Source: a virus
Lineage: Duplodnaviria; Heunggongvirae; Uroviricota; Caudoviricetes
Reading direction: 5' to 3' (one strand)
DNA: 47,797 nucleotides
IMG/VR virus record: IMGVR_UViG_2571042438_000008
Part shown: positions 8,248 through 47,797 of the stretch, in pieces
How the letters are laid out: each line of letters opens with the position of its first letter
Position numbering within the stretch: position 1 is the first letter of the stretch
Position numbers and translations under genes: made by a program
Notes under the pieces: generated by a model
Database searches by the model: none
Seen by the model: the letters and a program-made list of their open reading frames with translations, nothing else
Told to the model about the DNA's origin: nothing

Positions 8248-8339
8248 ACCATTGCTGAAATGTCTTTTTCAAGACCTTGCCAATAAGCTAAACAAAAATG
8301 TTTAATGTGCAGCCTAAAAAAGCACCAGTCACTATTATT

Positions 8340-8441
8340 TATATAATTATAGATTTATATAAAAAGTGCTTTACGGGTGGGAAAAAATTTCCTATGGTTA
8401 TACCCGAAACCGAGCGATACCCGCCCTGGTTAAACCGGAGA
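8340..8441 (+). repeat. Promoter-leader cassette, copy 1 of 3 (102 bp)
   Basis: One mismatch to 17297-17398. It consists of an AT box, -35 TTTACG (8370-8375), the spacer palindrome GGGAAAAAATTTCC, -10 TATGGT (8393-8398), and the leader ..TATACCCGAAACCGAGCGATACCCGCCCTGGTTAAACCGGAGA. Confidence 0.85.
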
Positions 8442-8448
8442 TAACCCG

Positions 8449-8829
8449 ATGAGCATGATTAAAATCCGCAAAAACGCTTTCCTTAAAATTCAAACTATCC
8501 TGGCTGGTTCTGTCGGCGTGATTTGCCGTTCTTCTTCAAGCCGCATCGATGACGGCTACGATGATGAGTATCGTGTGTCCTCGTGCGATGAGGCTTTAAC
8601 CTGGCTGAAGGAGAATCAGGAACGTGCCCAGGTATATCTGGAAACAGAGAACGGCAATCAGATGCTGCGTATTAGCGGTCGTTATGGATTTGAAACTACA
8701 TTCATGGCCTATTTTAATCAGGCTTACTTTGACAAGGAGCTGGCCTGGTACACTGACCGCATGAGCAAAAGCGAGCCAGCCCCGATTACACCGCCGAACA
8801 ATAAACCATTTTTATTCCTCGTTAAGTAA
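8449..8829 (+). CDS. Hypothetical protein (first gene behind cassette copy 1)
   Basis: 126-aa ORF starting 8 nt after the cassette GGAGA. I recognise no family. Confidence 0.6.
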   Translation: MSMIKIRKNAFLKIQTILAGSVGVICRSSSSRIDDGYDDEYRVSSCDEALTWLKENQERAQVYLETENGNQMLRISGRYGFETTFMAYFNQAYFDKELAWYTDRMSKSEPAPITPPNNKPFLFLVK

Positions 8830-9975: not shown

Positions 9976-11175
9976 TTATGGTCTGCTTTTCTGTGCCAGC
10001 TTATCAGCACATGTTTTTATCAGATCCTGTAGTGTCCTGGCTGGCAGGTTTGCATCCAGTACGCTGAGTATGCTGTTGTGATCTGCTTGGTCGACTACTT
10101 TGCCTGTCGGTGGTAGTAGCTTGAGCTGAGGATTCAGGTTTTCGTCAAAGCTGATAAGTGCTCTGGCGTTTCTGAGCAGATCAAGAAGTAAGGCTGATAT
10201 CACATTTTCCTGAGTCATTGCTGGCAGACTTAGCGCCGCTTTGGTTTTCCCTGTTGCCTTGTCAAACTCCTTGATTAGTTCCTTCCTGTAGTTCGGTTCC
10301 GTTAATAGCCGATTATGCTCTGTTGCCGCGCGGATAATCGTTTTTTCCTGGTATAGTCGTTTAGCCAGATCACGCTCGTACTGTGTTTTTAACACGCTGC
10401 TGATAGCGTTAAAGGCTTCAATGTAGGCCAGCTTGATATCTTTCACGCCTGGACCGTCGATGCTCTCCATGAGCAAGGTAAATCCGTCTTTTGTCATGCG
10501 ATAGATTGTTATTTCGCGGTCGCTTCCTTCCAGCGGTCGTTGCTCTTTAAAGAAGTGACGCGCCGCAGCCGTGCGAGGAATGCGTAGCGCATCGATGGCC
10601 ATAACGATGGAATTGTTTGTGGTGCTGAATGCCTGGGCAACATCGGCTGAGGTTGTGAGTGGCTCGTTGTTGCACACTTTAATGTAAAACATCGGTTTGG
10701 CGTTGAGCGTATCGACAACCTCACGAGCATTGCTTGGCGAGACGGTTACGGTCGCGGCCGTTTGCGCGTTCCGGCTGAAATAGCAGTCTTCCAGCCGTTC
10801 GAACACATCCCACGCTTGGTTAGTTTCAAGCATTTTGGCGTGACGTGCAGCCCCGCGTTCTGTCCAGAGAATGAGGGAGCGGGCTTTCGGGGAAATTTGT
10901 AACCCTCTTAAAGATGGTTGCACATTTTGTGAGTTACTTAAAGTAACCCGCAAATTTTGTGAGTGACTTAAAGTCACTCGCAAAGTTTTTAACTCATCGC
11001 CAGCCACTTTGAAAAAATGCTTTCCTTCAATAAAGCGGTTTGCGTTACGTGAGTAATTTTTTTTGATGTTATCAACGTCTGTGCCGTATAGCTTTGCCAG
11101 TAGTTCAGTAGTGATAACGGGGATCTGGTTATGCAGGATAGGCTGTAGGGTGTTAACGGTCGGAAGCGTTTTCAT
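9976..11175 (-). CDS. ant: Antirepressor-like protein (N-terminal ORF6N/KilA-N-like domain + Rha-like domain)
   Basis: The N-terminus IPVITTELLAKLYGTDVDNIKKNYSRNANRFIEGKHFFKV...ILWTERGAARHAKMLETNQAWDVFERLEDCYF is ORF6N-type. The middle EPLTTSADVAQAF..IYRMTKDGFTLLMESIDGPGVKDIKLAYIEAFN is Rha-type. The start overlaps the upstream ORF stop (ATGA). Confidence 0.8.
   Translation of the reverse strand: MKTLPTVNTLQPILHNQIPVITTELLAKLYGTDVDNIKKNYSRNANRFIEGKHFFKVAGDELKTLRVTLSHSQNLRVTLSNSQNVQPSLRGLQISPKARSLILWTERGAARHAKMLETNQAWDVFERLEDCYFSRNAQTAATVTVSPSNAREVVDTLNAKPMFYIKVCNNEPLTTSADVAQAFSTTNNSIVMAIDALRIPRTAAARHFFKEQRPLEGSDREITIYRMTKDGFTLLMESIDGPGVKDIKLAYIEAFNAISSVLKTQYERDLAKRLYQEKTIIRAATEHNRLLTEPNYRKELIKEFDKATGKTKAALSLPAMTQENVISALLLDLLRNARALISFDENLNPQLKLLPPTGKVVDQADHNSILSVLDANLPARTLQDLIKTCADKLAQKSRP
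10921..10980. repeat. Two tandem 30-bp repeats inside ant, each holding a 5-bp-arm palindrome (GTTAC-TTAAA-GTAAC / GTGAC-TTAAA-GTCAC)
   Basis: 10921-10950 and 10951-10980 differ at 4 positions. Two of those differences are compensatory (T:A to G:C) and preserve the palindrome. Confidence 0.8.
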
Positions 11176-11399: not shown

Positions 11400-11413
11400 T
11401 CGAGGCTAATCAA

Positions 11414-11497
11414 ATGGTGGTGAGCCGTACAGGGTTAGCCTTACCGGACACAATGACGAACCGGCGCGGATTTCTCCGCCCCTGTACGACCCACCAT
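11414..11497 (-). ncRNA. Candidate structured regulatory RNA (c4-like) in the ant operon leader
   Basis: An 84-nt three-way structure. The outer stem is ATGGTGG/CCACCAT (7 bp), the second stem GTACAGGG/CCCTGTAC (8 bp), and the inner hairpins are GCGGA-TTTC-TCCGC (11466-11479) and CCGG..CCGG (11444-11464). The loop segment AGGCUAA (minus-strand RNA) is complementary to UUAGCCU, which occurs in two flanking direct repeats GAUUAGCCUC (11402-11411 and 11567-11576). Confidence 0.35.
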
Positions 11498-11525
11498 AAT
11501 TTGGGCGTAACAGTGCTCTACGCAT

Positions 11526-11545
11526 AAAAAAACCGCTAACGCGGT
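11526..11545 (-). terminator. Rho-independent terminator (minus strand) inside the ant leader
   Basis: On the minus strand ACCGC-GTTA-GCGGT is followed by T7. Confidence 0.65.
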
Positions 11546-11658
11546 ATGCGCCATCGTGTTATTCAGGAGGCTAATCCCGGCCGTAGATTTTGCTACGGCT
11601 CGGAAAGTGTCCACCAATGGCGCATTTATGTCAATACGGCGGGATTTTAACAGAGACA

Positions 11659-11807: not shown

Positions 11808-12116
11808 CAAAAGGTAATAATAGTCCACTATTATGCTTCAAAAAATTGTGGTTCTTGTTGTGCCTGCAAACTCACAGATTGTGGGTAGGTTACTGATTTT
11901 GTGAAAATAAACGAGTTTTTTCGTTTAATTTCTTTCCTATTACTAATCTTAAAATAATCGTAAAATACCTGTGGACCTTCCCGCCGATTCGCACCCGGGC
12001 ACCGACTTTAGGGGAGGATTCTCCGTTGCCGTACATGCAAGCACAAGCAGCCGTGCTTGCTCTCGCGTTGTTTTCGTCGGTGGGGATGCCGTGAAACGGC
12101 CTGTAAGGGCCATACA

Positions 12117-12239
12117 ATGAAAAAATACTGTATGTGTATTTTTATCGTTGTTACTGGGGCTTTGTTTACGCCACATGGGGAGGGTTGGAAGATTACTGAT
12201 AACGCTCTGAATGTGACGATAAACATTAGCAGCAAGTAG
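12117..12239 (+). CDS. Small hydrophobic peptide (40 aa), candidate type I toxin or small membrane/secreted protein
   Basis: MKKYCMCIFIVVTGALFTPHGEGWKITDNALNVTINISSK. A strong plus-strand terminator follows immediately. A TAAAAT -10-like hexamer at 11961-11966 would give a ~145-nt structured 5-prime UTR. The Shine-Dalgarno is weak. Confidence 0.4.
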   Translation: MKKYCMCIFIVVTGALFTPHGEGWKITDNALNVTINISSK

Positions 12240-12244
12240 CGATT

Positions 12245-12268
12245 AGGCCCCTTCGGGGGCCTTTTTTT
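12245..12268 (+). terminator. Rho-independent terminator (plus strand)
   Basis: AGGCCCC-TTCG-GGGGCCT followed by T7. Confidence 0.8.
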
Positions 12269-12278
12269 ATGGCTGAAT

Positions 12279-12428
12279 TTAAACGCTGGAGCGCATTAAG
12301 CCTTTCAGAACTGCTTCACGTACCCATTCTGGCCTGGTGGATAGCAGGGCAAATAAGCAGCCAGCTTGCAGCCGTTTGAGGTCGGTTAGACGAGTTTTCA
12401 GTAACCGTGTATATTGTTGCTCGGACAT
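12279..12428 (-). CDS. Small hypothetical protein (49 aa from ATG 12428)
   Basis: AAGGGGA Shine-Dalgarno 8 nt upstream. It is the last gene of the par operon direction. Confidence 0.4.
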   Translation of the reverse strand: MSEQQYTRLLKTRLTDLKRLQAGCLFALLSTRPEWVREAVLKGLMRSSV

Positions 12429-12490
12429 AACAAATTCCCCTTGTTGTGTCGCGACGGCCAACAGTTGGCGCTGGAGGCCGTCACCTTCTC

Positions 12491-12739
12491 TTACTTCTGG
12501 TTGTATTGAGCCTTGAGTAACTCAAAAGACTTTGTCAGCACTTCTTTCAATGACATATCCATTGAGCTGGCGAACGTTTTGTACTCGCGTTTAAATTCAG
12601 GGTCGACGTTAAACGCCATTTGTGCCCCACCTGATTTGGTTCTGGTTGGCGTTTCAGTCGGGTCGAAAACCTGCGGTTGTTCGATCGATGGCGGTACGCC
12701 TTTGCTGTTCTTCTTTGGTGGTTTTGATGGTGCGGCCAT
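12491..12739 (-). CDS. Small partition/centromere-binding protein, ParG/omega-like (disordered N-terminal tail + RHH-like C-terminus)
   Basis: 82 aa, directly downstream of parA. The C-terminus MAFNVDPEFKREYKTFASSMDMSLKEVLTKSFELLKAQ has a beta-alpha-alpha pattern. Its size and position fit type Ib par systems. Confidence 0.6.
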   Translation of the reverse strand: MAAPSKPPKKNSKGVPPSIEQPQVFDPTETPTRTKSGGAQMAFNVDPEFKREYKTFASSMDMSLKEVLTKSFELLKAQYNQK

Positions 12740-12751
12740 GTGTATCCCCTC

Positions 12752-12786
12752 TTATATAAATCTATAAAACTATAATTATATATTAT
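12752..12786. repeat. AT box (TTATATAAATCTATAAAACTATAATTATATATTAT) between parA and the parG-like gene
   Basis: Member of the dispersed AT-box family built from TATAATTATA and ATAAATCTATA words. Confidence 0.7.
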
Positions 12787-13451
12787 GCGGCAGTAGTCAG
12801 AGCCTCAAGCTGGTTGATAATCCCCTGAATAACGTCGTCTGCCTTTTTGCGTGGCGCAACGTATGAGCACTCAATGAGGCTTAAGCCCTTATCCTGAGCT
12901 TTGCTCAGAGCTGGCTTGTGGGGAATGTACTTATCGACAACAAAGTATGGCGTATTAGCCAGGTACTCTTGGGCTTCAATATAGTCAGCTTCGTTTTCAG
13001 CCGCGCCGGAAAACACCATGCAAATTTTCTTGATTGGTACACCCTTTTTAACGATGCCGTGAGCAGTGTTAACGGTGGTTTCCAGGTCATCGGTAGAGAA
13101 TCGGGTTGGCAAAATAACCATATCCAGAAATTCAGATAGCTTCGGTACTGATTCAGATGCGTAGGCACCGCCATCGACGATAACCAGGTCGTATACTTCT
13201 GATTCGATGATTTTCTGGACTTGTGATGGTGTGCCGCACGGCTGCGCCGCGATTGCTGGTTCGATATTGTTGGCCATTCTGCGTTGTACCCAACGCGTTA
13301 CCGTTCCGTTAAGCACATCCATATCGATCAGGCATACATTCCAGCCAGCCTTTGCATAAGCAACTGCTAAAGCACGGGCAATTGTTGATTTGGTTACGCC
13401 GCCTTTTCCGTTGAAAATACCTACAGAGATAGTCATTTGTCGAGGCTCCAT
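12783..13451 (-). CDS. parA: Partition ATPase ParA (type Ib, deviant Walker A)
   Basis: GKGGVTKST Walker A box. 222 aa with no N-terminal HTH extension. Confidence 0.9.
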   Translation of the reverse strand: MEPRQMTISVGIFNGKGGVTKSTIARALAVAYAKAGWNVCLIDMDVLNGTVTRWVQRRMANNIEPAIAAQPCGTPSQVQKIIESEVYDLVIVDGGAYASESVPKLSEFLDMVILPTRFSTDDLETTVNTAHGIVKKGVPIKKICMVFSGAAENEADYIEAQEYLANTPYFVVDKYIPHKPALSKAQDKGLSLIECSYVAPRKKADDVIQGIINQLEALTTAA

Positions 13452-13459
13452 GTGTTTGG

Positions 13460-13491
13460 TTATATAATTCTATAAATCTATATTTATAGAA
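13460..13491. repeat. AT box upstream of parA (TATATAATTCTATAAATCTATATTTATAGA)
   Basis: AT-box family member. Candidate centromere/operator. Confidence 0.7.
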
Positions 13492-13530
13492 CGAGGTAAG
13501 CATAACCAACTTTTTGGCTGATGAAAAGCG

Positions 13531-13565
13531 TTTTATATAATTATATAAATCTATAATCATATAAG
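13531..13565. repeat. AT box upstream of parA (TTTTATATAATTATATAAATCTATAATCATATAA)
   Basis: AT-box family member. Candidate centromere/operator. Confidence 0.7.
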
Positions 13566-13586
13566 CGGGCGTTAGCCCGCTTGCAG

Positions 13587-13961
13587 TCAGAGGTCAGCTA
13601 TCGTTGATATCAGTTGATTTGCTAGCTGTCGCTGTTTACGTGAGAGGGTTAGAGCAGCTTCTGAGCGGTCGCTAAGAGGGGGGGTTTCATCAAGAATCAT
13701 GAGGCATACAGAAATAATAGCCCTGTTATATGCCATCAATGGCTGGCACAGCTTCGATACCGCTGGCACATCGTATTGTAAGGCCGTTTTGAGGCAGACT
13801 TTTTGTTCTGATGCCAGATGAAGGATAGATTCTATCCAGTCGATATCTTTCTCATTATCAATGATTTGGCATAACATACACTCAATCGCTATGTTCAACG
13901 CTTGGATTTCGATTCCAGCAGTGATCAGAGTTTCGTTTTTATTGGCTGTATGTAATTCCAT
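13587..13961 (-). CDS. Hypothetical protein
   Basis: 124-aa ORF between cI and the par locus, with an AAGAGG Shine-Dalgarno. Confidence 0.6.
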   Translation of the reverse strand: MELHTANKNETLITAGIEIQALNIAIECMLCQIIDNEKDIDWIESILHLASEQKVCLKTALQYDVPAVSKLCQPLMAYNRAIISVCLMILDETPPLSDRSEAALTLSRKQRQLANQLISTIADL

Positions 13962-13996
13962 GCGTAGCCTCTTTTATACTTTTACATGTTGTCAAA

Positions 13997-14011
13997 ACCA
14001 CAAAATGTGGT
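13997..14011. promoter_or_regulatory. Perfect ACCAC-AAAAT-GTGGT palindrome
   Basis: Located between the cI stop and the next minus-strand gene, overlapping a TTGACA hexamer. Confidence 0.5.
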
Positions 14012-14053
14012 TTTTTTGAGCGTAGAAATGCACGGCTTTCGCCGTGCTGTGTA

Positions 14054-14710
14054 TCATAACCAGTTGACAACACTAACTACGCGGCCAAGAACTTTATAAC
14101 GCTTAAATTCCTCGTTATTCAGATGCTTAGTGTTCATTTCAGCATCCCTTTCGGTTGACAGCATAACAGCATTGTCACCCGGTATGACTCTACAGTGCCT
14201 CAAAACAACCAGGCCATTTCTGTCTTCAAGGGCATAGATCCCCTCATGAATCTCTGTATCGTCTGTATTAATCAGGACTTGGGAGCCTGGGGATATTGTT
14301 GGTGACATTAACTCATCGTTGCTCTGGAGAACTGACAGAGACGATGGGTTGATGTTCTTGCTTCGTAGAATCTCCTGTTCTATCGCCAGCACTGGCTTTT
14401 CTCCGGCGTGCGATGCTATGTCATTTTTTATAGCTACAAGCCCAGGAATAACAGGAGCGTTAGTATTCTGGGGTGGGAACGGGTTATCTGTTAAGCACGC
14501 GATATAAGGCGCTGATGCTTTCAGGGCGTGCGCGATTTTCTTGATGGCAGGTATAGATGGTTGTCTTAATCCGGCCTCATAGTTCTGCAAGGTGCTTAAG
14601 CCTATTCCAGTGACTTGCTGGAGATCTCCGGCAGTCATGCCGGATTGTTTCCGTAGAGTCTGAATGCGCAGACCTATTTCTTTCTTGATGTTCTCGTCGT
14701 TGCTTTTCAT
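14054..14710 (-). CDS. CI-like repressor (XRE HTH + S24 LexA-like C-terminal domain, catalytic dyad apparently substituted)
   Basis: The N-terminal HTH is MTAGDLQQVTGIGLSTLQNYEAG. The C-terminus aligns by eye to the S24 fold: DELMSPTISPGSQVLIN against GDSMEPTI.dGd.vlv, and GLVVLRHCRV against ..vvKRl... The gene is divergent from a Cro-like gene across an operator-rich region. Confidence 0.85.
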   Translation of the reverse strand: MKSNDENIKKEIGLRIQTLRKQSGMTAGDLQQVTGIGLSTLQNYEAGLRQPSIPAIKKIAHALKASAPYIACLTDNPFPPQNTNAPVIPGLVAIKNDIASHAGEKPVLAIEQEILRSKNINPSSLSVLQSNDELMSPTISPGSQVLINTDDTEIHEGIYALEDRNGLVVLRHCRVIPGDNAVMLSTERDAEMNTKHLNNEEFKRYKVLGRVVSVVNWL

Positions 14711-14747
14711 GTCTCATCAATCGTGAATGGTGGGTTATTTATACATT

Positions 14748-14762
14748 ACCACATTTAGTGGT
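14748..14762. promoter_or_regulatory. Operator: perfect ACCAC-ATTTA-GTGGT
   Basis: In the cI/cro divergent intergenic region. Confidence 0.6.
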
Positions 14763-14850
14763 TTTCACATGGTAAGACGAGAGGTGGACCACAAATAGAA
14801 GGTTATTTTTTGTTTCGCCCATTGAAAAACTCACGATATGTGGTTTTAAT

Positions 14851-14865
14851 ACCACGTATCGTGGT
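14851..14865. promoter_or_regulatory. Operator: perfect ACCAC-GTATC-GTGGT
   Basis: In the cI/cro intergenic region. Degenerate relatives lie at 14788-14804 (ACCAC-AAATA-GAAGGTT) and 14830-14844 (CTCAC-GATAT-GTGGT). Confidence 0.6.
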
Positions 14866-14884
14866 TTTAACTGGAGTTCGTTAA

Positions 14885-15379
14885 ATGACCTTTCAGGAGT
14901 GGGTTGACGAAAATGGAGGCCAAATTGGTGTTGCCAGAAAGTTTTGCTTTACGTCATCACTGATTGGTGCCTGGTATCGCTTCGAGAGATTCCCTCGTGC
15001 GGATAACCTGACGCTGCTGGTGGCGTATTCGGAAGGCCGGATTAACGTCCAGCAATGGGCGGCAGATTTTGCCGAACGTCAGCGCCAGCGTAGCGATGGC
15101 ACATCGGTTCGGCAGAACAAGATCAAAGGGAATCTCCCTGTTAACTGCTTATCAAGGCTGAAAGCGGTTTTCTCTGAGCTGGGGATGCCTGCGGAGCGTT
15201 GCAATCTACGCGGTCCGCGATTCATTGCTCGCTGGAAACACTCACACGTAACCGTTTCAGAGGTTCGTGATGCGATTACCGTGCTGGAGCTTAAGAATAA
15301 AGATTCCAGCGATATCGAGCTGATTCATAAGGAGATTAGCAACGCCCGGCGTTCAGCACTTGGGAGGCTTGAGGAATGA
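14885..15379 (+). CDS. Cro/YdaS-like HTH protein with C-terminal extension (first gene of rightward operon)
   Basis: Divergent from cI. The N-terminus QEWVDENGGQIGVARKFCFTSSLIGAWYRFERFP resembles the Cro/YdaS-type HTH. Confidence 0.55.
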   Translation: MTFQEWVDENGGQIGVARKFCFTSSLIGAWYRFERFPRADNLTLLVAYSEGRINVQQWAADFAERQRQRSDGTSVRQNKIKGNLPVNCLSRLKAVFSELGMPAERCNLRGPRFIARWKHSHVTVSEVRDAITVLELKNKDSSDIELIHKEISNARRSALGRLEE

Positions 15380-17235: not shown

Positions 17236-17296
17236 AAGTGTCATTTTGAGCTGTTTTGATGGTGTGTAGACATCGGGAACATCGAAAATCTATAAA

Positions 17297-17398
17297 TATA
17301 TAATTATAGATTTATATAAAAAGTGCTTTACAGGTGGGAAAAAATTTCCTATGGTTATACCCGAAACCGAGCGATACCCGCCCTGGTTAAACCGGAGA
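17297..17398 (+). repeat. Promoter-leader cassette, copy 2 of 3 (102 bp)
   Basis: -35 TTTACA at 17327-17332, -10 TATGGT at 17350-17355. Identity with copy 3 continues to the ATG (AATCTGATGA). An extra inverted AT word ATCTATAA lies upstream (17288-17295). Confidence 0.85.
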
Positions 17399-17404
17399 AA
17401 TCTG

Positions 17405-18472: not shown

Positions 18473-18503
18473 CAGTAAGCCTACGGCGGGACGTCTCCCG
18501 CCG

Positions 18504-18536
18504 TATATAGAATTATATATTTATACAAATGTATAA
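18504..18536. repeat. AT box (TATATAGAATTATATATTTATACAAATGTATAA)
   Basis: AT-box family member at an operon boundary. It is preceded by the hairpin ACGGCGGGA-CGTC-TCCCGCCGT (18484-18505). Confidence 0.6.
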
Positions 18537-18549
18537 GGACGCCTCGACA

Positions 18550-18831
18550 ATGAAACGCAAAATTATTAACCCCCAAGATGTGATTAATTTCCTGACCGAT
18601 CACCCATGTTCAAAAGTGGACGTAATCGCGGAGCACATTGGTGTGTCGCAGAACTCTATGCGTTGCAGACTGAGAAGCATGGTTGCCGAAGGACAGATAA
18701 CAACCAGGAAAATAAATGGTTGCCTGTACTACTCCGCTAAACCGGAATTGCCATTTGGCATGAATCCTAACTCCATGTTGTTTAACACCTTATTAGCCAA
18801 AGTTAAGCCGTTGAGAGGGGCTGTGGCATGA
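18550..18831 (+). CDS. Winged-helix DNA-binding protein (alternative start 18529)
   Basis: INFLTDHPCSKVDVIAEHIGVSQNSMRCRLRSMVAEGQI is a MarR/wHTH-like pattern. Confidence 0.55.
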   Translation: MKRKIINPQDVINFLTDHPCSKVDVIAEHIGVSQNSMRCRLRSMVAEGQITTRKINGCLYYSAKPELPFGMNPNSMLFNTLLAKVKPLRGAVA

Positions 18832-22906: not shown

Positions 22907-23030
22907 TACCGCCTGTGATTGGGTAAAGCCCATCTACCTGACTGATCACGATATCGATGTTATGGACCGCCAGACAAAGAAAGATATTCTGGCTCATAAC
23001 AGGGCATGGGAAATCAACTGCCCCAAGTAA
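22821..23030 (+). CDS. o-spanin (Rz1-like lipoprotein), overlapping the i-spanin 3-prime end in another frame
   Basis: Signal sequence with lipobox LIASC. 69 aa. Confidence 0.7.
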   Translation: MYIRVLTIWLMTMLIASCGSRGSVPVVVDTACDWVKPIYLTDHDIDVMDRQTKKDILAHNRAWEINCPK

Positions 23031-23064
23031 TATATATTTCTATAATTATATAAATATATAGTTA
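23028..23064. repeat. AT box (TAATATATATTTCTATAATTATATAAATATATAGTTA)
   Basis: AT-box family member directly after the lysis cassette. Confidence 0.6.
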
Positions 23065-23199
23065 CAACATTCTATGCGCTTTTCTCATGGGCGCACGCAT
23101 CAACCATGTTTGTCTGATATGCCGCCGCGCCCAAAAATCCTGAATTTATTGGCTGGGATTTTCGTGCGCGGCGCCACACCAGACAAACAGATCAAATAT

Positions 23200-23275
23200 G
23201 GCCCCTTAGCTCAGTGGTTAGAGCAGGCGACTCATAATCGCACGGTCATCGGTTCAAATCCGGTAGGGGCCACCA
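23200..23275 (+). tRNA. tRNA with anticodon CAU, tRNA-Ile2 (ileX-like) rather than Met
   Basis: A 76-nt cloverleaf, GGCCCCTTAGCTCAGTGGTTAGAGCAGGCGACTCATAATCGC..GGTTCAAATCC..GGGGCCACCA, with the anticodon at 23233-23235 and an encoded CCA. The 5-prime half is identical to E. coli ileX as I recall it. The acceptor stem has C4-G69 and C5-G68. Confidence 0.9.
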
Positions 23276-23483
23276 ATTCACTCTCACACATAAAGATAAG
23301 CGCGGTGGAGTTACTTCCTTCGTGCTCATCTTTATGCGTGCCTGGTGCGCATTTCGGGCGAACGTGGGGCTAAGTTACAGGCAGGGCCTGTTATCCGCAA
23401 AGGGGTAAAAGCTGGAGCGGCACGGAACTGTAGCCGTGTTACCAAAACAGCGTTGTCGGGCGATATCCGGCACACAACAGGCA

Positions 23484-23583: not shown

Positions 23584-24171
23584 ATGGAGGCAATTGCATT
23601 GTTTAATCTGATTTATGCAGATCCCCCCTGGGAATACAAAGATAAGTGTAAGGATGGGAATCGTGGAGCTGGTTTTAAGTATCCAACGATGAAAGCTGAG
23701 GATATTGCTCGTATTCCTGTCTGGCAGCTTGCTAATCCTGAATCGTGTTTGTTGGCCATGTGGTGGGTTCCGACTCAGCCAGAAGAAGCGTTGCTGGTGG
23801 TGAAAGCATGGGGATTCAGGCTTATGACCATGAAGGGCTTCACATGGAACAAATGTGGTAGCCGACAACCAGATAAGCTGGTGATGGGGATGGGGCATAT
23901 GACTCGTGCAAACAGTGAAGATTGCTTGTTTGCGGTAAAAGGCAAATTGCCGACCCGCCTTGATGCGGGGATCATTCAGTCGTTTACATCGCCTCGTCTG
24001 GAGCATTCTCGGAAGCCTGATGTGGTTCGTGACAAGCTGGTAAGGCTGTTAGGTGATGTTCCTCGTATTGAGCTGTTTTCTCGCGGTGATTTACCTGATG
24101 GTTGGCATGGCTGGGGCAACCAGTGCAATGGAGGTATCCAGTTGCATGATGCTCTCTGGCAAGTGGCATAA
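23584..24171 (+). CDS. MT-A70 family DNA N6-adenine methyltransferase
   Basis: DPPW catalytic motif (IYADPPWEY). FKYPTMK and EHSRKPD are typical MT-A70 blocks. Confidence 0.85.
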   Translation: MEAIALFNLIYADPPWEYKDKCKDGNRGAGFKYPTMKAEDIARIPVWQLANPESCLLAMWWVPTQPEEALLVVKAWGFRLMTMKGFTWNKCGSRQPDKLVMGMGHMTRANSEDCLFAVKGKLPTRLDAGIIQSFTSPRLEHSRKPDVVRDKLVRLLGDVPRIELFSRGDLPDGWHGWGNQCNGGIQLHDALWQVA

Positions 24172-24174
24172 AAT

Positions 24175-24276
24175 TATATAATTATATATTTATATAAAAA
24201 GTGCTTTACAGGTGGGAAAAAATTTCCTATGGTTATACCCGAAACCGAGCGATACCCGCCCTGGTTAAACCGGAGA
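24175..24276 (+). repeat. Promoter-leader cassette, copy 3 of 3 (102 bp)
   Basis: One mismatch to copy 2. -35 TTTACA at 24205-24210 and -10 TATGGT at 24228-24233. Confidence 0.85.
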
Positions 24277-24282
24277 AATCTG

Positions 24283-47261: not shown

Positions 47262-47797
47262 TATCTTTAATGTTAGCTTGTTGGATGTTTTACCTCCTAA
47301 CTTAGCTAGCGATCCCAACGTGATAGCTATGTCGAAAGCTATTGATGATGAACTACAAGCAATTAACAATTTAATATATAAGACAGAAATATATAGCGTT
47401 GTTGATAACCTGGACTCAGTTGTTCTCGATCATTTAGCTTGGCAATGGAATGCTGATACATGGAGGGATAGTTGGCCTGTATTGTTAAAGCGTTCTGTTT
47501 TTAAATCAATAATACGAACAAAGCGAATAAAGGGTACAAGGGCAGCGGTTGAAGATGTAGTAAATAGCTTGGGTGGAGAGGTAAACATAACAGAATGGTT
47601 TGAAACATCACCACCTGGCGAACCATATACAGCCTCAATTGTTGCTTCGATTAACTCTTTTGATGGTGCTGTTCCTTCGAAAGAGATGTTGGAGGATACG
47701 TTAAGAAGTATCAAGAGTGCAAAGTCGGCAAGAACACTATTTACATTTTCGCAAGCAACCAATGTTTCAGGTGGTGTTGGTATTGTCGGTGCTTTCC
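47254..47797 (+). CDS. Tail protein, P2 gpI-like (N-terminal part; runs off the window end and continues at 2..289); not in the supplied ORF track
   Basis: ATG 47254 overlaps the J stop. It translates MADIFNVSLLDVLPPNLASDPNVIAMSKAIDDEL..LDHLAWQWNADTWRDSWP..KRIKGTRAAVEDVVNSLGG, which is a gpI-family pattern. No stop is reached before the window end. Confidence 0.75.
   Translation, partial: MADIFNVSLLDVLPPNLASDPNVIAMSKAIDDELQAINNLIYKTEIYSVVDNLDSVVLDHLAWQWNADTWRDSWPVLLKRSVFKSIIRTKRIKGTRAAVEDVVNSLGGEVNITEWFETSPPGEPYTASIVASINSFDGAVPSKEMLEDTLRSIKSAKSARTLFTFSQATNVSGGVGIVGAF
47547..47797. repeat. Terminal overlap: exact copy of bases 1-251 (circular assembly artefact or circular permutation)
   Basis: Read directly: both segments start GGTTGAAGATGTAGTAAATAGC and end ..GTCGGTGCTTTCC. 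Confidence 0.95.

Follow-up and report, generated by a model that had tools for sequence, protein, structure and literature searches.

The partition (par) locus of this element comprises a parA gene, the gene of a small ribbon-helix-helix (RHH) protein, and three AT-only boxes. Positions refer to the window, the whole stretch of 47,797 nucleotides that was analysed. The features of the locus are as follows.

12491-12739, minus strand: gene of the 82-aa ParG-like protein, with a disordered basic N-terminal tail and a C-terminal ribbon-helix-helix; proposed binder of the boxes
12752-12786, minus strand: box F, a four-unit array in the spacer that separates parA from the RHH gene, with 12 nt from its end to the ATG of the latter
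12783-13436, minus strand: parA, encoding a 217-aa Walker-type partition ATPase of type Ib size
13460-13491, minus strand: box G, a four-unit array in operator position, shortly after the parA -10 and the inferred start of transcription
13499-13527, minus strand: putative parA promoter as read from the sequence, with -35 TTTTCA (13527-13522), a 17-nt spacer, and -10 TATGCT (13504-13499)
13531-13565, minus strand: box H, a four-unit array directly upstream of the parA -35 and after the terminator hairpin of a gene for a 124-aa protein

Matches to the Pfam families CbiA, ParA, and MipZ span residues 5-186 of ParA, and its KGGxxKST Walker A motif is invariant across relatives. The parA counterpart in the E. 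coli plasmid p142_C is annotated as a ParA family protein. The locus has the composition of a type Ib partition system. ParA falls within about 200-220 aa and has no N-terminal helix-turn-helix (HTH) domain, a small-protein gene with a predicted RHH fold follows parA directly at a distance of 43 nt, and iterated short repeats (boxes F, G, and H, with four 8-bp units each) adjoin the operon. In the direction of parA, the order is hairpin, box H, -35, 17 nt, -10, 7 nt, box G, and GGAG..CCTCGACAA-ATG. The earlier note had three boxes flanking parA and the parG-like gene, and this arrangement is found, with G and H around the parA promoter and F between the genes. As 32-nt direct repeats, boxes F, G, and H have 84-88% identity with each other, and no other notable repeats are present in 12200-14000. 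The layout of array, -35, 17 nt, -10, array, and GGAG..CCTCGACAA-ATG is readable in most of nine lineages, with weak hexamers in some of them, and the RHH proteins of these lineages range down to about 40% identity. A counterpart of box F occurs inside the par operon in Salmonella, S. marcescens, and lineage L094.

Bases 1-251 of the window are repeated as 47547-47797, and because of this terminal 251-bp repeat the window represents one circular element of 47,546 bp with a GC content of about 45%. Its annotation is that of a phage-plasmid and includes RepA, a toxin-antitoxin pair, a cI-like repressor, ParA, an early operon, lysis genes, and a contractile-tail virion module. The 3-kb stretch that was searched, 12000-15000, is identical to plasmid p142_C and has about 98.5% identity with three Yersinia pestis myophages (vB_YpM_39, 41, and 44). 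The phage-plasmid family is common and counts these three phages among its members. Complete plasmid records of the family number 61-63, and most of them come from E. coli of clinical and animal origin. The 48.5-kb plasmid NZ_CP009073 of the reference strain E. coli ATCC 25922 belongs to it. The maintenance biology of the family appears to be undescribed in the literature searched, where no description of the partition system or the boxes of this element was found.

Structure and positions of the eight boxes

Five further boxes lie outside the par locus, and all eight AT-only boxes that had been reported are present.

8333-8365, plus strand: box A, a three-unit array with an A-tract, followed by -35 TTTACG (8370-8375) and -10 TATGGT (8393-8398) of cassette 1
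17285-17322, plus strand: box B, a four-unit array with an A-tract, followed by -35 TTTACA (17327-17332) and -10 TATGGT (17350-17355) of cassette 2
18504-18536, plus strand: box D, a four-unit array between a hairpin (18486-18503) and the ribosome-binding site (RBS) of a winged-HTH-like gene (ATG at 18550)
23028-23064, plus strand: box E, a four-unit array about 135 nt upstream of tRNA-Met (23200-23275) and a DPPW-motif (MT-A70-like) gene
24168-24200, plus strand: box C, a three-unit array with an A-tract, followed by -35 TTTACA (24205-24210) and -10 TATGGT (24228-24233) of cassette 3

Windows with at least 27 A or T in 30 nt occur in the whole element only at the eight boxes, six of which also reach 28/30. 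Markov shuffles give a mean of 1.3 AT clusters (maximum 5) at 27/30 and 0.19 (maximum 2) at 28/30. The two words from which the boxes had been said to be built stand. The word TATAATTATA is a true palindrome and occurs six times, while ATAAATCTATA and its complement occur five times, in both cases exclusively within boxes.

Each box consists of three to four in-phase copies of the 8-bp unit WTTATAKA, with the near-palindrome TTATATAA. Among the 30 units, T3, T5, and A6 are invariant, and A4 and A8 are found in 26 and 28 units, respectively. The autocorrelation of the boxes peaks at lag 8, with a value of 0.64. The three-unit pattern TTATAN3TTATAN3TTATA, with up to two mismatches, has 24 matches against 0.22 expected, and all of them are in the eight boxes. 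The two-unit pattern has 41 matches against 1.17 expected; since 39 of them are in boxes, there is no ninth site in the element. All boxes are located within 8.3-24.2 kb, and none is in the virion genes or near repA. Not all of them are strictly intergenic, as had been claimed. There is a 4-nt overlap of box F (12752-12786) with the stop codon of parA, and one of the same length between box C (24168-24200) and the stop codon of the 195-aa DPPW-motif (methyltransferase-like) gene.

A promoter cassette is present in three copies and has boxes A, B, and C at its 5' edge, as the earlier note had proposed. The cassette consists of the box, GTGC, TTTACA (TTTACG in cassette 1), 17 nt, TATGGT, a leader of about 50 nt, GGAG, and ATG. 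The genes that follow start at 8449 (cassette 1, 126 aa), 17405 (cassette 2, a DUF3560 gene), and 24283 (cassette 3). The gap between box and -35 is 4 nt at A, B, and C, and 3 nt at box H of the parA promoter (TTATATAAAA-CGC-TTTTCA). The last part of boxes A, B, and C is an A-tract, located at about -40 to -46. A convincing sigma-70 promoter was looked for next to boxes D, E, and F, and none was found. The leader of box D, GGACGCCTCGACAATG, resembles the parA leader, and box D with its leader is similar to box G with the leader of parA. The 99-aa open reading frame after box E is probably spurious because it overlaps the tRNA-Met gene (23200-23275). RNA structure in the cassette leader was considered and dropped, as its folding is only marginally better than that of shuffled sequences (z = -2.1).

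The par-proximal and distal boxes are related in sequence. With a weight matrix built from F, G, and H alone, the five distal boxes are the next five matches at 20.7-31.5 bits, and the best background site has 14.9 bits. A second comparison used the 7-mers of the whole spacer upstream of parA and involved no manual choice of boxes. The other six boxes share 13-29 of these 7-mers per 40 nt, and the maximum is 10 in the null and 12 in seven control spacers.

The 82-aa protein and the box word in relatives

Single-sequence searches with the 82-aa protein give no match in Pfam, NCBIfam, or the PDB, and a PHROGs search gives only a family of unknown function. A word-indexed homology search finds only relatives with at least 79% identity. 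Distant homologues are reached by an exhaustive profile search, which collects 102 proteins of similar size. In this family, the N-terminal tail is basic and rich in proline and contains a Lys-Gly that is invariant, and the C-terminal part has the motif LNFKV..EF.REFK..A....S...LL...F. Among 62 distant homologues, 24 match Pfam RHH_10, 15 match Antitox_RHH, and five match ParG (PF09274), the last with a best E of 2.7e-4. The 82-aa protein has no Pfam match itself and thus none to PF09274 above the Pfam gathering score. Searched against the PDB, the family profile has ParG of TP228 (1p94) as its best match, in register over the RHH at a sub-threshold E of 0.12; no omega chain was found in PDB searches up to E 10.

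A first AlphaFold2 (AF2) run with a shallow alignment gives a pLDDT of 65. With a deep alignment, residues 41-80 are predicted with a mean pLDDT of 92-97 per 10-residue block, as an extended segment followed by two helices. The top Foldseek matches of the AF2 model are almost all RHH proteins (TM 0.7-0.85), including PutA, CopG, CdbA, Arc, AmrZ, and ParD. The label "ParG-like" is thus appropriate for the architecture, a disordered tail with a predicted RHH, and not for the sequence, which stays below the thresholds of the ParG and omega families. On the basis of the predicted structure, the 82-aa protein has the ParG/omega architecture and is outside both families by sequence criteria.

Salmonella plasmid NZ_LN890526 has 80% DNA identity in the par region and carries TATA-type boxes at all eight homologous places, with permuted units. 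Box E is kept there with the same downstream GTTACAACATT. The Serratia plasmids pJSRIV006_2 and YL4 p2 (the latter from S. marcescens) have the plasmid and early module in common with the element, one of the two has a lambda-like siphovirus virion module, and their RHH proteins are only 39-43% identical to the 82-aa protein. Their homologous boxes are located around the parA promoter (two), upstream of analogous cassettes (three), and before ggacNcctcgacaATG (one). In YL4 p2, an extra box lies between parA and the RHH gene. At the counterpart of box D, both Serratia plasmids keep the flank ggacNcctcgacaATG with the local word inside. The arrangement is conserved in elements of Escherichia, Salmonella, Serratia, and Pantoea whose virion modules differ.

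The box word differs between these relatives. Boxes of E. coli and Salmonella contain TATA four to seven times per box and no TTAAA/TTTAA, whereas Serratia boxes contain TATA at most once and TTAAA/TTTAA two to six times per box. In Serratia and Pantoea relatives, par-proximal and distal boxes alike use TTAAAG instead of TTATAG. The flanks of the Serratia boxes stay homologous, and the word is replaced. The 7-mers of the spacer upstream of parA also find distal boxes in two Serratia plasmids, two Pantoea elements, and lineages L090, L094, L095, and L007. The unit is again 8 bp in these lineages, e.g., (TTCTTTAA)x3-4 in L094, and L007, as a third lineage, has the word TACAT.

Residue 42 of the RHH protein faces outward on the predicted DNA-reading strand, and its identity varies along with the word. 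It is Ala or Ser in E. coli and Salmonella with the word TTATA, Asn in eight lineages with TTAAA or TTAAC, and Thr in L007 with TACAT. This correlation is suggestive and no proof, as it includes two independent switches only and gives no clean code: L093 and L094 both have Asn-Phe-Lys, and their words differ (TTAACG vs. TTAAAG). If confirmed, the words TTATAG, TTAAAG, and TACAT with Ala/Ser, Asn, and Thr would make a compact system for DNA reading by the RHH beta-strand. Covariation by itself does not point to the RHH protein in particular, since all proteins of the module have diverged in the same lineages. The conjugative plasmid L093 is informative here. It has a homologous ParA/RHH pair, and its 8-bp arrays, of TTAACGAW, are confined to the surroundings of parA. 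In the 20 kb of L093 examined, neither a cI-like repressor nor a homologue of the 124-aa gene was found, and genes of the early operon were absent as well.

Other candidate relatives contributed little. Erwinia phage LS-2018a, a weak RHH match, has no comparable boxes, and L092 was discarded as a spurious match. A profile search of genome contigs with the ParA alignment found only generic Walker-A ParA loci from unrelated phyla.

Proposed readers and functions of the boxes

Probably, at a rough probability of 0.66, the eight boxes are arrays to which the 82-aa RHH protein of the element itself binds, as the centromere-binding partner of ParA. This reading is built on the observed anatomy of the boxes, the predicted RHH fold, the sequence relation between par-proximal and distal boxes, and the concerted change of word. 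Dispersed centromere-like sites with an omega-like global role had been among the suggestions of the earlier note. The suggestion gains from the predicted fold, from the position of F, G, and H as the sole repeats of the par region, and from the par-derived matrix that retrieves the distal boxes. It gains further from the comparative data, in which par-proximal and distal boxes switch word together in diverged relatives. The RHH protein is favoured as the reader because of the arrays in L093, the tracking of the word by residue 42, and the 8-bp units, which are out of helical phase.

In the proposed mechanism, each WTTATAKA unit would bind one RHH dimer, and three to four adjacent dimers would coat a box cooperatively, in the manner of ParG on parH, omega on its heptads, and MetJ on metboxes. 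Boxes H and G around the parA promoter and box F inside the operon would together serve as centromere and autoregulatory operator. The five distal boxes would be extra copies of the array at other transcription units. Bound there, the RHH protein would tune and most probably repress these units in the plasmid state, and the distal sites may also add centromere capacity. Repression is expected by analogy with omega and ParG, possibly with the alpha subunit of the polymerase being displaced from the A-tract. Binding of the 82-aa protein to all eight arrays, if it occurs, would let a single partition protein of a temperate phage coordinate segregation with the expression of five further units.

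Several points weigh against binding of the RHH protein at all eight arrays. The cassette boxes could be passive copies that are carried along with the cassette, and no promoter is evident next to boxes D, E, and F, which makes a regulatory role of these three less certain. The RHH protein is under the sequence thresholds of Pfam ParG and the PDB, with the ParG profile match at E=0.12. A par-less 32-kb derivative, pCREC-544_3, persists as a plasmid record. It was the sole record in a search for plasmids that have the cassettes and lack the RHH gene, and it is uninformative on cassettes without that gene because it is a recent 32-kb deletion derivative.

An unlikely extension of the preferred reading makes the RHH protein a copy-number-sensing switch that joins plasmid maintenance to phage development. 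At low copy, all eight arrays would be occupied, and the three cassette operons, the box-D operon, and the tRNA/methyltransferase unit would be held down. Amplification after induction would bring eight arrays (about 30 units) per copy and titrate the protein. This would lift the repression of the distal units and of the par operon, with no dedicated lytic regulator involved. If true, a centromere-binding protein would be a core part of the lysis-lysogeny circuitry of a phage-plasmid.

The best surviving alternative, which is unlikely, is that the distal boxes are additional centromeres only, bound by the RHH protein for segregation, with no meaningful effect on transcription. Phage-plasmid N15 employs four separate inverted-repeat (IR) centromere sites (PMC7205306). 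The adjacency to promoters would then be a by-product of cassette duplication, which agrees with boxes D and E having no evident adjacent promoter and with the number and placement of boxes around par varying among lineages. However, boxes A, B, and C lie at a constant 4 nt from the -35, much like box H, and the spacing is also readable in Serratia cassettes despite their other word. This fixed geometry favours regulation over a role as centromere only. In addition, the RHH partition proteins that have been studied control the promoters overlapped by their sites (PMC9499535).

It is less probable still that another protein of the element binds the boxes. The candidates are the conserved 124-aa protein, whose gene lies between cI and parA, the winged-HTH-like protein of the gene after box D, and the cI-like repressor. 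All of them also diverge between lineages of differing box word, and the 124-aa gene always adjoins par in phage-plasmids. Even so, L093 has 8-bp arrays at its ParA/RHH locus and yet none of these genes in the 20 kb examined, and tandem 8-bp units out of helical phase suit RHH dimers and not HTH dimers. The cI-like repressor is rejected as box binder, since the divergent spacer between cI and the early operon (14711-14884) has a different inverted repeat and no box.

Intrinsic promoter features read without a dedicated protein, i.e., UP elements contacted by the C-terminal domain of the RNA polymerase alpha subunit or stacked -10-like TATAAT hexamers, are a very improbable explanation. Boxes A, B, C, and H are at about -40 to -75, the A-tract of the cassettes (about -40 to -46) looks like a proximal UP subsite and is kept in Serratia cassettes, and TATAAT is found inside most E. 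coli boxes. However, box G is downstream of the -10, and boxes F and D are directly before an RBS, so that a host-generic element confined to about -40 to -60 agrees in position with A, B, C, and H only. The strict 8-bp phase with invariant T3, T5, and A6 is no property of UP elements. The host polymerase is conserved, and a signal that it reads would not be expected to switch with lineage at every site. TATAAT is absent from Serratia boxes. The UP-element proposal of the earlier note thus survives only as a possible add-on, as it cannot explain boxes G, F, and D or the lineage-specific words.

The remaining proposal, that H-NS, IHF, or Fis, as a nucleoid-associated protein of the host, acts at operon boundaries by silencing or bending AT-rich DNA, accounts for the extreme AT content of the boxes in a genome of about 45% GC and is hardly credible otherwise, since elements of related hosts differ in word and the TATA-type element also grows on Yersinia pestis, a member of the same family as Serratia with its TTAAA elements. 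We know of no binding motif of H-NS, IHF, or Fis that resembles the ordered 8-bp units.

Comparison with known systems

The tandem 8-bp units are similar to those of MetJ. MetJ is an RHH repressor that binds two to five tandem 8-bp palindromic metboxes, with one dimer per unit and cooperative contacts between dimers. In contrast to the proposed role of the 82-aa protein, MetJ is a chromosomal metabolic repressor with a co-repressor and no partition role, and there is no sequence relationship.

UP elements share with the boxes their A/T-rich nature at about -40 to -60, and the cassette A-tract is at the position of the proximal subsite. The boxes differ by their phased 8-bp repeats, their occurrence past promoters and before an RBS, and their lineage-specific word.

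The IR sites of N15 are scattered through the phage genome near regulatory regions. N15 resembles the present element in being a phage-plasmid with a partition protein that has several separate sites, which is the arrangement proposed here. Its SopB has four natural separate IR sites and no single clustered centromere (PMC7205306). In contrast to the RHH protein and tandem arrays found here, N15 has a type Ia HTH ParB (SopB) and single palindromes of the 16-bp class.

The closest known system is omega/parS of pSM19035, and the next is ParG/parH. To our knowledge, ParG sites are confined to the par locus, whereas five arrays are distal here. The TP228 system includes ParG, the centromere parH, and the O_F operator. 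ParG, of about 80 aa, is likewise an RHH protein whose N-terminal tail is disordered, and its gene is located directly after that of a small ParA (ParF). The centromere is similar to the boxes in being an AT-rich array upstream of the operon with an 8-bp register, composed of a 4-bp box and a 4-bp AT spacer (PMC3130281). ParG coats parH, which consists of tetramer boxes with AT-rich spacers, in a cooperative manner that tolerates rearrangement (PMC3130281). The box word is ACTC in parH and WTTATAKA here, and the match of the family profile to ParG is sub-threshold at E=0.12.

The omega system also combines a small RHH protein with a flexible N-terminal tail, a Walker ParA, and contiguous short repeats that are direct or inverted (PMC9499535). 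Several arrays per replicon are located over promoters of different operons, and the omega sites serve as both centromere and operator (PMC9499535). The parS arrays have 7-10 heptads and overlap three promoter regions, and at least four contiguous repeats are needed for activation of the ParA ATPase (PMC9499535). Arrays are likewise found here at predicted promoters of different operons, with H and G at the parA promoter and A, B, and C at the cassettes. The dual role of the sites is known for omega, whereas the arrays of the present element are known from their sequence. The unit here is the 8-bp WTTATAKA and not the 7-bp WATCACW of omega, and neither such heptads nor, in PDB searches up to E 10, sequence homology to omega are found. 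The host is Gram-negative, the replicon is a phage-plasmid, and the eight sites are spread over 16 kb, with one of them upstream of a tRNA gene. The present system is thus different from the known ones in its 8-bp near-palindromic unit, in a protein outside both sequence families, and in its occurrence on an enterobacterial phage-plasmid with eight sites over 16 kb.

Modular relatives of the element

The plasmid pCREC-544_3 (NZ_CP024829.1; 32,182 bp), recorded as circular, is a family member derived by deletion. Absent from it are cI, the entire early operon, and the par locus; still present are RepA, the toxin-antitoxin pair, one promoter cassette, and the virion genes. The Serratia sp. JSRIV006 sequence NZ_CP074139.1 shares with the window a plasmid/early module comprising RepA, Rha, RHH, ParA, cI, Ref, and DUF1064, which lies there beside a lambda-like siphovirus virion module. 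The corresponding module in E. coli and S. marcescens adjoins contractile-tail modules. Maintenance and virion modules therefore recombine as separate blocks.

Promoter cassettes and the tRNA gene

The window carries three copies of the cassette, and a tRNA gene lies downstream of box E, one of the AT boxes (arrays of the 8-bp unit WTTATAKA proposed as sites for the 82-aa RHH protein).

8366-8448 (+), cassette copy
17323-17404 (+), cassette copy
24201-24282 (+), cassette copy
23200-23275 (+), tRNA-Met (CAT) gene

Each cassette opens with a putative promoter, TTTACA-17-TATGGT; a leader about 50 nt long comes next, and then a ribosome-binding site. The leader is almost the same in all three, and its folding is only marginally better than that of shuffled sequences (z = -2.1). 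The genes behind the cassettes, encoding 126 aa, DUF3560, and 89 aa, are mutually unrelated. The Serratia plasmids pJSRIV006_2 and YL4 p2 each have an analogous cassette in three copies, with the related leader ..CGGCCGGGCA..CCAACCGGAGATAA..ATG. The 99-aa ORF at 23074-23373, which comes from a mechanical ORF listing, overlies the tRNA-Met gene and is probably not a gene.

The RHH protein and candidate cI operators

14831-14864 (+), inverted repeat with a 14-bp stem, TCACGATATGTGG..CCACGTATCGTGG, within the cI/early divergent spacer
about 13979-14018, related motif CCACAAAATGTGG, between the conserved 124-aa gene and cI
12700-12703, K13-G14 codons of the 82-aa protein
11971-12267 (+), ryfA sRNA, matched over its full length (Rfam RF00126, 141.8 bits)

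The inverted repeat and its related motif are candidate cI operators, and they differ from the AT boxes. Lys13-Gly14, in the disordered N-tail of the 82-aa protein, is invariant among RHH homologues of 38-48% identity. The ParG tail contains an arginine finger, and by analogy Lys13-Gly14 is a candidate ParA-stimulating motif. The ryfA match is convergent with the RHH gene and lies at its 3' end.

A possible c4-ant-like immunity region

11413-11501 (-), C4 antisense RNA (Rfam RF01695, 70.8 bits)
11526-11599 (-), isrK RNA (Rfam RF01394, 68 bits)
9976-11175 (-), Rha/ORF6N anti-repressor-like ORF, immediately downstream of both RNA matches

These three features together look like an immunity module of the P1/P7 immI c4-ant type, here in a non-P1 phage-plasmid.
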